Assembly: GCF_041886205.1 (NCBI RefSeq)
Contig: NZ_CP169029.1
Origin: Escherichia coli
Lineage (GTDB): Bacteria > Pseudomonadota > Gammaproteobacteria > Enterobacterales > Enterobacteriaceae
Reading direction: 5' to 3' (one strand)
DNA: 64,000 nt
A program made the position numbers. Positions 13,001 through 16,000 of the stretch are shown here, piece by piece; the stretch's first letter is position 1, and each line of letters begins with the position of its first letter.

Positions 13001-16000
13001 TCTATTTTATTAATAGCATCTGTTGCTCTGCCATACGCAGCCTGAGCTTCAGGATTGTTGACGTTTTTCAACGTATCCGCATGATTTCTTAATCCTCTGA
13101 GCGTATTTTGCATTTCCTGCATATGATCCCAATATCCTCCATTCTCTTTAGGAACTGGCTTACCATCCATATCCTTGAGAGTTCCAATAATATCATGATC
13201 TTTCAGAGCATTTTTTATAGTGTTATCGATCTTCTTAATCGCACTTTCTTGCTTCTGATTAAGCTTATCTACAGGTTTTTCATTTTGCTGCTTAGGATCA
13301 TTTTCCGATGGTGGTGGTGTACCGGTTCCTGAGCCGGAACCGCCCAGTTCTACTTTTTCCGCATCGGTCAGATCTTTACCGATATTCGGATTCGAGGCAG
13401 CCCCGGAACCGTACTTATCATGCAACGAACTGAGATACTTAGTAGTGATCTCATCATTACCCATCATTTGCAGGGTAATCAGATGCTCCAGTTCATCGGA
13501 GGTCATCCTGTCGGCCATATCCTTGACTGCCGCCCCGGCAAGCCCGGCCATGCCCGCTTTCGCCCCGATTTCTAGCAACTGCTCTGCAACTTTAGTCCTG
13601 CAAGGTGCTGCGACCGCACAGCCTCTGGCAACCAGACTCAGCGCATTATTCTCAACAACGTTCTTCCCGGCACCAGCTCCAGCAGCCGCGCCAGCCACAT
13701 CGCCACTGGCAATGCCGCCGGCCATACCCGCTGACAGCGTTGCCAGCGTGCTTACAGTTTGCTTCTGATCTTCACTGAGGTCTGACTGCTTCACGCCCGG
13801 ATACAGCATTCCGATCGCTCTGGCTGCCAGTTCTCCTGTTGCTGAGCCGACAAAGGCGCTATTTTTCTGTACCACCGACAGCGTGGCATTCACCACTGCA
13901 TGAGTTCATGTGGGACATCTGACGGACAAATTATTTCACAAATGTCCGCTTAACGCGCTCAGATACAATGAAATAGGGGATCCAAATACAGGCACTAAAC
14001 ACGTTACGTACCAATGGTTTTACCGTATCAAAAACATAAGGCACGTCTAAATAGATGTGGCCCAGCAGTAAATCGACAGCAACAAATATCGTTCCTATCC
14101 CAATAAGTGCAATATAGTGATGCGGCAATTGACGCTTTTTACGAAAAAACAAGCTACTAACGAAAATTCCATAAGAAAACATACCAATGAAAGCAAAGAG
14201 TTCAAAAAAGAGGATCCCTTTTTGTGCGTGACCGATCTGCGCAATATTTTCCATTAAGAATCGTATAGTGAAATTAATAGAGATCATATTGGCGAGAATT
14301 GTTAAAACCAGTCCTATTGCTGGCAAGTATAGCCAACCACGAATTTTTTTAAATTCGCGTTCTTCACAAACAGCGCAAAAGTCACTGTCCTTCAGTGCTT
14401 CATTCTCACATTGAATACAAAGTCTTATTTTCTTCTCTGCATCATGGCTCATCTGATAATCACCTATTATTTATACGGGAAAAGTTGAAGATCATGCTGT
14501 TTATTTTCGTCTGTATTGTCACCATTCAGCATATGACCCGGTCCCCGGGTACCATCGCGACTCGGATCACGTACAGCACACTGTTCCCGTGAACCTTCAC
14601 AACCACCACCGGTATCCAAGCTATTATCATTCCCGGTATCCTTACTGGCATTACCTGTAGCACCGGCTATTGCTGCTGCCGTATTAGCTGCTGTTTCAGT
14701 GGCTATCATATTCAGCATATTGTTTCCAGCAACTATCTTAAGTTCCAATTAATCATTTCTTTAGCAAGTTGGCAATCCATAACATTAAACCTGTAAAGCT
14801 ACCAATGTATATACCTATCTTACCTAAAAATAAAATAATGTTCGATGAAAAAGACACTGGTATTCCTTTATAAAAAAAGAAAAAAAATTCCCCGCATACA
14901 TATAAAATCGCCCCTGTTAGAAAAATTGAAACCATGCTGAATACAATAAAAAAAACAGAGGAAGAATGAATTTTAGAGCTTTCATTTGCCACCACCTTCC
15001 TGCTTCATTTTGTACTCTGTATACTTACCTCCGGCTTCTGAAGTGATACTACCACCAATGTCACCAATTGAGCTGGGGACATTGCTTGGTTTCATTTCTT
15101 TTGAGATTCCCAAATCTCCTTGGACTTCAGTAACACTTCTCAACTCAGAATTAAACTTCGGATCCCAACCACCTTTCCACCAGTTTGCCCCTGCATTAAC
15201 ACCCCATGAAAGTCCTTTACCAAGGCCATAGCCAATACCCGAACCGGTACCATTGATAAGTGCACCTGACAATGGATCTTTGTCGTCAATCCAGTTACCC
15301 AGTGCCCCTCCGGCAGCATTCCATCCAACGGTTCCTTTCCAGCCCTGCCCCATGGTGATTACATTGACCCATCCTGCAATGATTGCATTTTCAGGATCAA
15401 CTGAACTATCTACCATGTAACCAATTCCTGCATTTGCACCTGTGCCAAGAACCCACATGGCCTGAGCACCGCCAGGTAAGAAAGCTACACTACCAGTGGC
15501 CAACGCTCCGGCATACGCTTTATTGACTGCTTCTCCTCGCTTACAGGCTTCACCGGAAGGATTATCACTACAGGAGAGAACATCAGCGCCATGCTCTCTG
15601 GCTTTTTCCGTCTGGAGCCATTCACTGCCACCCAGCAGGTTATTCTCAACAACAACTCTTTCCGCCGCAGGTTGCTGTGATAAAAAAGTTTTCCCTGTGC
15701 TTTCAGCGCGTTAAAACCGCTTTGTCCTGCTATAATTCCGGCGCAACAACTTTTTGCCCTGACGCGCCCTTTCAGCCAGTTACACCATTTCCCCCAAATC
15801 TGTTAAAGAATAGCTCCCAACACACTATGACCATCATCCTTCCATGCAGTCATAGACAATATTCCATGGCGATAGCTTCTAATTATTCAGAGGATAAGCT
15901 TTTGAAAAATCATTGTACGTTTCATGAAGATGATAAAATTTTGCATCAGGGTCATTTTTCAGTTCTTCATATCTTTTCATCAGTTTTTTGAATAACCCCT

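Follow-up and report, generated by a model that had tools for sequence, protein, structure and literature searches.

A conserved DUF2569 membrane-protein gene recurs in contact-dependent growth inhibition arrays of Escherichia coli and other bacteria

A 64,000-nucleotide stretch of Escherichia coli DNA (contig NZ_CP169029.1, RefSeq assembly GCF_041886205.1; hereafter the window) contains a cdiBAI locus that encodes contact-dependent growth inhibition (CDI) with an orphan array of the EC869 type; all of it is on the minus strand. Between two orphan modules of this array lies an intact gene for a DUF2569 inner-membrane protein of 173 amino acids (aa). DUF2569 genes were also found in the CDI loci of Photorhabdus, Serratia fonticola and a Variovorax metagenome-assembled genome (MAG). 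Membership of the protein in DUF2569 is already known and is annotated in RefSeq; what appears to be new here is that a conserved DUF2569 gene is a recurrent part of CDI orphan arrays, including the much-studied EC869 array. The reading that we favour, with a probability of roughly 0.4, is that a conserved membrane accessory has been co-opted repeatedly by CDI islands and is probably protective.

The gene was analysed as an open reading frame (ORF) at exactly the position given in an earlier note on this DNA, and the N-terminal CxxC...CxxC described there was read directly as CIQC...CAVC, with cysteines C12, C15, C26 and C29. Its parts are as follows, with TM standing for transmembrane and AF2 for AlphaFold2.

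13931..14452, minus strand: DUF2569 gene, an ATG-start ORF of 173 codons for a predicted zinc-ribbon inner-membrane protein
14460..14465, minus strand: Shine-Dalgarno sequence AGGTGA, 7 nt 5' of the DUF2569 ATG, read from the sequence
14366..14419, minus strand: codons 12-29, CxxC-x10-CxxC, a predicted cytoplasmic Cys4 zinc ribbon, read from the sequence
13964..14338, minus strand: DUF2569 core, residues 39-163, with four TM helices, from hydropathy and AF2
13934..13987, minus strand: family signature IWIPYFxVSxRVKRTFV, residues 156-173, at the cytoplasmic end of TM4 and in the C-tail, from the alignment

A profile search for zinc-ribbon membrane families, which the earlier note had proposed as a check, returned Pfam DUF2569 (PF10754) with an E-value of 1.2e-28 and 100.8 bits against a cut-off of 26.5. 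Residues 35-172 matched model positions 2-143 of 143, above the gathering score. Identical or near-identical copies are labelled 'DUF2569 domain-containing protein' in RefSeq, and we take the family to include the E. coli inner-membrane protein YdgK. The protein shares with its family the full-length match to the hidden Markov model, the four-TM core and the C-terminal IWIPYFxxSxRVKxTF signature, and it differs in its N-terminal Cys4 predicted zinc ribbon (a trait of an Enterobacterales subfamily), in its location in a CDI array and in being AT-rich relative to chromosomal relatives. In an alignment of 23 homologues the four cysteines were kept in most Enterobacterales relatives, and the zinc-finger models zf-P11 and DZR gave weak, sub-threshold matches to the N-terminus in the Pfam search. 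The NCBIfam search gave no informative match, the PADLOC models gave 0 families at E ≤0.01, and no DNA-binding or secretion-related domain was detected in the protein by profile searches.

Hydropathy located TM segments at about 41-59, 80-98 and 113-137 and a less hydrophobic fourth helix. The AF2 model, built with 23 homologues (mean predicted local distance difference test score, pLDDT, 88.8; predicted template modelling score, pTM, 0.77), placed helices at 39-69, 75-104, 109-135 and 141-163, followed by a short C-terminal helix, so that the four or so TM helices expected earlier were borne out. Clusters of lysine and arginine (FKKIRG, RKKRQ and RVKRTFVK) occur ahead of TM1, in the loop that joins TM2 to TM3 and in the C-tail, and from these the N-terminus with its predicted zinc ribbon, the TM2-3 loop and the C-terminus are predicted to be cytoplasmic. 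The C-terminal motif IWIPYFIVSERVKRTFVK is present, and its columns were invariant or near-invariant in the alignment (I156, W157, P159, Y160, F161, S164, R166, V167, K168, T170 and F171). Regional conservation was highest on the predicted cytoplasmic side (C-tail 0.83, TM2-3 loop 0.74, pre-TM1 0.71) and lowest in the periplasmic loops (0.33 and 0.39). The ORF thus encodes an intact DUF2569 inner-membrane protein with four TM helices, N-in/C-in topology and a cytoplasmic Cys4 predicted zinc ribbon. It is beyond a chance reading frame because of the Pfam match, the 118 homologues and the ratio of non-synonymous to synonymous polymorphism (pN/pS) of 0.03-0.11 given below.

The gene recurs in Photorhabdus, in which it lies downstream, on the same strand, of CdiA and strings of VENN-containing orphans (loci L009, L024-L029, L032, L034, L050 and L057). 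In one genome of Photorhabdus akhurstii, three separate CDI loci (L025, L034 and L057) each end in a DUF2569 gene, and in Photorhabdus it was the last array gene wherever the contig reached past it. Every Photorhabdus copy is preceded by a shared block, the decayed remains of a 79-aa, two-TM immunity gene; this immunity gene is intact in P. tasmaniensis L024, behind an ionophore-like orphan homologous to one in the window. One strain of S. fonticola has the order cdiA, cdiI, DUF2569, asmA, and in another several orphans intervene and the DUF2569-asmA junction is unchanged. The Variovorax MAG (L088) carries a CdiA fragment with a hydrophobic C-terminal toxin region (CT), an 85-aa TM immunity gene and then the DUF2569 gene. 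In a neighbour-joining tree, the E. coli CDI copies fell within a Kosakonia chromosomal clade, Photorhabdus and S. fonticola grouped in a different clade and Variovorax lay far off. This placement indicates at least three independent recruitments to CDI loci.

In E. coli, the gene was found in 54 of 5426 complete genomes, with at least 80% of its length covered in all of them and 95.9-100% nucleotide identity, and the CDI-array setting was seen in all 35 E. coli records inspected. The same allele (96-100% nucleotide identity) stands beside different modules in different strains. O157:H7 strains of the EC869 type have it between orphan modules o10 and o11, and in M3, SMBL and plasmid pToe17-1 the same cassette comes directly after the main cdiA, which encodes a tRNase, and its DUF596 immunity gene. 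Pairwise comparison of four E. coli alleles gave 9-13 synonymous against 1-5 non-synonymous differences, that is, pN/pS of 0.03-0.11 at pS of 8-12%. Judging from these substitutions, the E. coli CDI-array copy is kept by purifying selection while the adjoining toxin fragments decay. G+C content at third codon positions (GC3) was 36% in the E. coli CDI copies, like that of the CT/cdiI cassettes, 29% in S. fonticola, 23% in Photorhabdus and 66-71% in Kosakonia; the CDI-linked copies are AT-rich relative to their hosts by this measure.

These findings bear on a rival explanation that we regard as a serious possibility, though short of even odds: the gene would be a passenger, encoding a DUF2569 protein with a function unrelated to CDI, which was caught in the AT-rich island by illegitimate recombination and travels along without contributing to immunity or to the delivery of toxins. 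Arguing against this are the presence of DUF2569 genes from three or more separate branches of the tree within CDI arrays or at their ends, the three array ends in a single P. akhurstii genome and the strong purifying selection beside decaying toxin fragments; by a rough estimate, a random gene would be expected beside a cdiA array in about 0.05-0.5% of lineages. On the other hand, the signature motifs are unchanged in the CDI-linked copies, implying the same molecular job, and the conserved face of the protein is cytoplasmic. The gene is also absent from the CDI literature examined, in which the gene between o10 and o11 is unmentioned and assigned to no module. A DUF2569 gene as a CDI accessory is not described in the literature searched, and the one paper that contains the name 'DUF2569' has it only in a table, for a selC island in which cdi genes are present too. 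Papers on ydgK seemed, by title and abstract, to deal with no mechanism.

The passenger explanation also draws on relatives outside CDI loci. At E ≤1e-3 there were 118 homologues (90% clusters), and an exhaustive search extended the family to 1864 representative clusters. The closest relatives, at 49-79% identity and with the predicted zinc ribbon kept, belong to Kosakonia, Enterobacter, Phytobacter, Siccibacter, Cedecea, Yokenella and MAGs; the best identity to the E. coli protein, within Kosakonia and related genera, was 79%. Their syntenic site consists of ytfQRT-yjfF, a gene for a Tar-type methyl-accepting chemotaxis protein (MCP), the DUF2569 gene 13-66 nt further on and fbp on the opposite strand, and no CdiA or toxin was found within 10 kb of these closest chromosomal relatives. 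Other settings are of the housekeeping kind too; in Serratia proteamaculans, for example, the gene lies between mug and an HPP gene. A Pfam census of upstream neighbours in 65 non-Photorhabdus loci counted MCP 11 times, LuxE 6 times and a yjfF-type permease 4 times, and the 25 commonest of the 57 families included no toxin family.

The family is modular as well as large. DUF2569 forms the C-terminal module of DUF3857 proteins of about 840-890 aa, with or without a transglutaminase core, in Bacteroidota, Ignavibacteria and Verrucomicrobia (L048, L051, L052 and L062). It is also C-terminal in a Sel1-repeat protein and internal in an ankyrin-repeat protein whose later part has exosortase-like and DUF805 domains (L049 and L058). 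From these fusions, DUF2569 was taken to be a general membrane module. When a transferred segment was sought between the E. coli and Kosakonia DNA, identity of about 70% was confined to the coding region and the flanks had no homology. The E. coli copy derives from the chromosomal lineage of Enterobacteriaceae that normally stands behind a Tar-like MCP gene.

Several details of these chromosomal loci were recorded. The yjfF-MCP-DUF2569-fbp site occurs in L003, L010-L013, L018-L021, L033, L093, L095 and L099-L101. Some MAGs (L092-L094) have a second, 148-aa DUF2569 paralogue in tandem, and some Escherichia lineages have a 36% identical paralogue at yjfF-fbp. In L102-L104 (6781..6999), a DUF2569 gene without the zinc ribbon begins one base after a 72-aa hydrophobic two-TM ORF, with no toxin nearby; this order of a small TM gene followed by DUF2569 echoes that of the CDI loci.

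The earlier note had looked to a clear match with a housekeeping membrane family unrelated to polymorphic toxin loci as the result that would overturn its proposal. A housekeeping family does match, as the relatives in the toxin-free yjfF-MCP-DUF2569-fbp locus demonstrate, but it is not unrelated to polymorphic toxin loci, since DUF2569 lineages occur in the CDI arrays of E. coli, Photorhabdus, S. fonticola and Variovorax. The choice that the note left, between a stranded immunity protein and an unrelated membrane protein, is not settled; the evidence points to a third reading, the co-opted conserved accessory.

The array around the gene in the window is made up as follows.

16361..26140, minus strand: main cdiA, 3259 aa, the array head (ORF; RefSeq annotation of the near-identical locus L002)
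15879..16364, minus strand: cdiI of the main cdiA, 161 aa (ORF; RefSeq annotation of the near-identical locus L002)
14982..15710, minus strand: orphan cdiA-CT, in whose translation were read VVVENN (at about 15650), an entry domain with a Cys pair and an ionophore-like domain rich in Gly
14753..14995, minus strand: 80-aa, two-TM immunity gene of the ionophore-like orphan (hydrophobic ORF that follows the CTo10-EC869-like CT)
14467..14748, minus strand: 93-aa toxin-less orphan cdiA-CT stub (ORF directly upstream of the DUF2569 gene)
12973..13896, minus strand: next orphan cdiA-CT, with a pre-toxin VENN domain and an Ntox28-like CT ending ...ALKGYGI (PT-VENN E 3.9e-16; weak Ntox28 match)
12590..12976, minus strand: CdiI_3-family immunity gene of the GYGI orphan (PF18616 E 2.1e-28)

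The position between a displaced cdiA fragment and the next orphan module, stated in the earlier note, therefore stands: the fragment is the CT stub, and the module is the GYGI orphan, whose slot is taken by CdiA-o11, a DNase module, in EC869-type strains. The orphan module at 12590..13896 resembles the CysK-dependent UPEC536-type tRNase. The DUF2569 gene starts 14 nt past the stop codon of the stub and ends 34 nt ahead of the next orphan, with its own Shine-Dalgarno sequence. It is not the immunity gene of either adjoining module because each module has its own.

The stub consists of a degenerate VENN motif (VAGNN), a 74-aa entry domain (MLNMIATE...DENKQ) and nine unrelated codons (HDLQLFPYK) before the stop, which agrees with the earlier statement that the DUF2569 gene has no toxin gene of its own. 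The same entry domain is found in the full-length CdiA of E. coli M3, which reads AENN-MLNVIATE...DENKQ-PNLGKD...tRNase; there DENKQ runs on into a linker and the tRNase toxin, and the partner is the DUF596 immunity gene, not DUF2569. The DUF2569 gene thus occupies the cdiI slot of an orphan cassette whose CT shrank to an entry-domain stub. Homology between the window and the EC869-type locus is restricted to 13715..14547, comprising the last 27 stub codons, the gene and the start of the next pre-toxin. From these limits we infer that the unit recombines as a cassette, in the manner of a CT/cdiI module.

Such a position would suit a stranded cognate CdiI: a membrane protein conferring specific immunity to a membrane-acting CdiA-CT, which would have lost its toxin domain between ...DENKQ and the nine final codons, so that a cassette with immunity alone was left. 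The break coincides with the border of entry and toxin domains, at which CTs are modular (PMC11630599), membrane-acting toxins have membrane immunity proteins (PMC7858069), and orphan cdiI genes are thought to be kept as an immunity repertoire (PMC3150448). We nevertheless consider this explanation improbable. No full-length toxin was found directly 5' of a DUF2569 gene in about 100 loci examined. When the parent toxin was sought with the 93-aa stub, all 33 homologues were of 158 aa or less, and none of them carried a toxin domain ending ...LQLFPYK. In Variovorax and in S. fonticola L096 the DUF2569 gene is second after the CT, behind a separate immunity gene, and where the orphan array ends in P. 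tasmaniensis L024 a separate TM immunity gene again comes before it. In locus L001 (10002..10277), as in the window (14753..14995), the two-TM peptide has its own gene, separate from the DUF2569 gene. Whereas a cognate CdiI would be expected behind a toxin domain with which it co-varies, the CT upstream of the gene has no toxin domain and the sequence of the protein is conserved. A classical cognate CdiI is therefore unlikely, because the relatives are housekeeping genes free of toxins (79% identity to the chromosomal Kosakonia protein), the protein is conserved rather than polymorphic, no toxin lies directly upstream and the same allele flanks different modules.

The co-opted accessory, which we prefer, takes its likeliest role from the modules in front of it. 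Module o10 of EC869 is a SecY-dependent ionophore, and CdiIo10 is a two-TM peptide (PMC7858069, PMC11630599). In EC869-type strains the DUF2569 gene comes after module o10. In the window it comes after the o10-related CT and the 80-aa TM immunity gene, with the stub between; this orphan CT is 31% identical to the module o10 CT of an EC869-type strain (E 6e-6), and its identity to the terminal orphan of P. tasmaniensis L024 is 45%. DUF2569 genes in CDI loci are frequently right behind such pairs of an ionophore CT and a two-TM CdiI. As a rule, 'always behind an ionophore module' was rejected, with E. coli M3, SMBL, pToe17-1 and S. fonticola L096 as exceptions. An overlap of the start codon with the upstream immunity gene in L024 and L088 was also rejected, as it holds only if the earliest start that could be used is chosen; with the conserved start, 42-54 nt separate the two genes, and therefore coupling is not claimed.

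In the mechanism that we propose, CDI islands would co-opt a conserved, non-polymorphic DUF2569 membrane accessory that is not a toxin-specific CdiI. The protein may act in the inner membrane alongside the small two-TM CdiI peptides, and its conserved cytoplasmic surface and predicted zinc ribbon may bind a partner. The likeliest benefit would be protection or tolerance at the membrane, as a generalist or auxiliary form of immunity to ionophore-type CDI toxins that insert into the membrane, or to their entry. Since CdiIo10 is sufficient in laboratory assays and some carriers have no adjacent ionophore module, the role must be additive or broader than one toxin. A more specific form of the proposal is that DUF2569 proteins form a hitherto unrecognised class of conserved, non-polymorphic inner-membrane factors that blunt ionophoric CDI toxins or their entry and have been captured repeatedly as a generalist second immunity layer beside the two-TM CdiI; this we hold to be speculative and rather unlikely as it stands. 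If true, it would provide the first function for the DUF2569/YdgK family.

Comparison with known systems places the protein outside the established classes. It shares with the ionophore-type CdiI proteins (CdiIo10-EC869 and CdiI-EC93; PMC7858069, PMC11630599) that they are integral inner-membrane proteins encoded in CDI arrays. Those proteins are about 80-100 aa long, have two TM helices, are highly polymorphic and stand immediately behind their own toxin, whereas the DUF2569 protein has 173 aa and four TM helices, is conserved across orders and is encoded behind a separate small immunity gene or a toxin-less stub. It is thus not the short two-TM peptide directly after an ionophore CT by which that type is recognized. 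Immunity proteins of pore-forming colicins of the A type have four TM helices and about 175 aa and reside in the inner membrane. Size, helix number, location and a genetic link to membrane-depolarising toxins are shared with them, but the DUF2569 gene adjoins no toxin gene, and at the sequence level the colicin-immunity models gave no match to the 173-aa protein by hmmscan at E ≤1. Conserved accessory genes of CDI loci include those for the acyltransferase CdiC and the lipoprotein BcpO, and polytopic Abi/CPBP proteins take part in bacteriocin self-immunity. Like the DUF2569 gene, these are conserved, non-polymorphic extras embedded in toxin loci, and with Abi/CPBP there is an earlier case of polytopic membrane proteins supplementing a dedicated immunity, although none of them is related to the DUF2569 protein in sequence or fold.

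Several observations weigh against a protective accessory. The nearest relatives stand in housekeeping contexts, and the census of upstream neighbours described above has no toxin family in its top 25. A conserved cytoplasmic face with variable periplasmic loops suits a conserved housekeeping partner no less than protection. To protect E. coli targets from CTo10, CdiIo10 is enough by itself (PMC7858069), and therefore DUF2569 is not required for CTo10 immunity. An ionophore neighbour is not universal: what precedes the gene in M3, SMBL and pToe17-1 is the tRNase cdiA with its DUF596 immunity gene, and in S. fonticola L096 a soluble CT. Five Photorhabdus copies (L032, L034, L050, L057 and L059) are pseudogenes, which shows that the gene is dispensable.

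The position of the gene within arrays also suggested that it could be a structural or regulatory element of the island, serving as a 3' homology arm for swapping CT/cdiI arrays, as an aid to CdiA biogenesis or in regulation through the predicted zinc ribbon. In S. fonticola and Photorhabdus it is terminal, at the core-gene boundary, and the array between cdiA and the gene is variable. A VENN-containing stub precedes it in E. coli and Photorhabdus, as would be expected for the first gene past the last displaced orphan. However, S. fonticola shows only a weak VENN-like remnant ahead of the gene, and in E. coli the gene is internal and its position varies, from first after cdiI in M3 and SMBL to next to last in EC869-type strains. 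A homology arm would not explain the recruitment of different DUF2569 lineages, and the protein has no detected DNA-binding or secretion-related domain, as noted above. We judge this explanation to be very unlikely.

CDI orphan arrays are read as strings of toxin/immunity pairs, and the DUF2569 gene sits outside such pairing. Recruitment in at least three lineages together with purifying selection would suggest that the gene has some accessory function, be it broad protection or another, that is missing from current models of CDI immunity, and would open to experiment a domain that occurs in about 1,900 protein clusters. Should the gene be only a passenger, it is still a warning that a small membrane ORF of an orphan array need not be an immunity gene.

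Minor observations were made on the loci examined. In two of the Photorhabdus pseudogenes, L050 (3731..4347) and L057 (8199..8992), the gene is interrupted at an identical point by similar short inserts, translated as ...PVIFQVASLLAAL(T/A)HPG..., which suggests a small mobile repeat. Elsewhere in E. coli, the CT stub continues in frame, at ...DTGGGCE, into a protein of about 75 aa that is rich in Cys (CRVCG...CNCCG) and has no Pfam match; these fusions are P0010, P0012, P0016, P0017, P0024 and P0030, and P0017 alone occurs on 103 contigs. Beyond the last orphan module of the window, remnants of transposases of IS66 and of the IS3 type occupy 11556..12559. Together with a 91-aa gp25-like baseplate fragment (10803..11078, minus strand), for which the GPW_gp25 match was just under the Pfam cut-off, they bound the distal end of the array. 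A 595-aa protein with NERD and UvrD-type helicase domains (8728..10515, minus strand) matched the PADLOC candidate defence model PDLC01087 ('NERD+UvrD') from end to end with E 7e-140.

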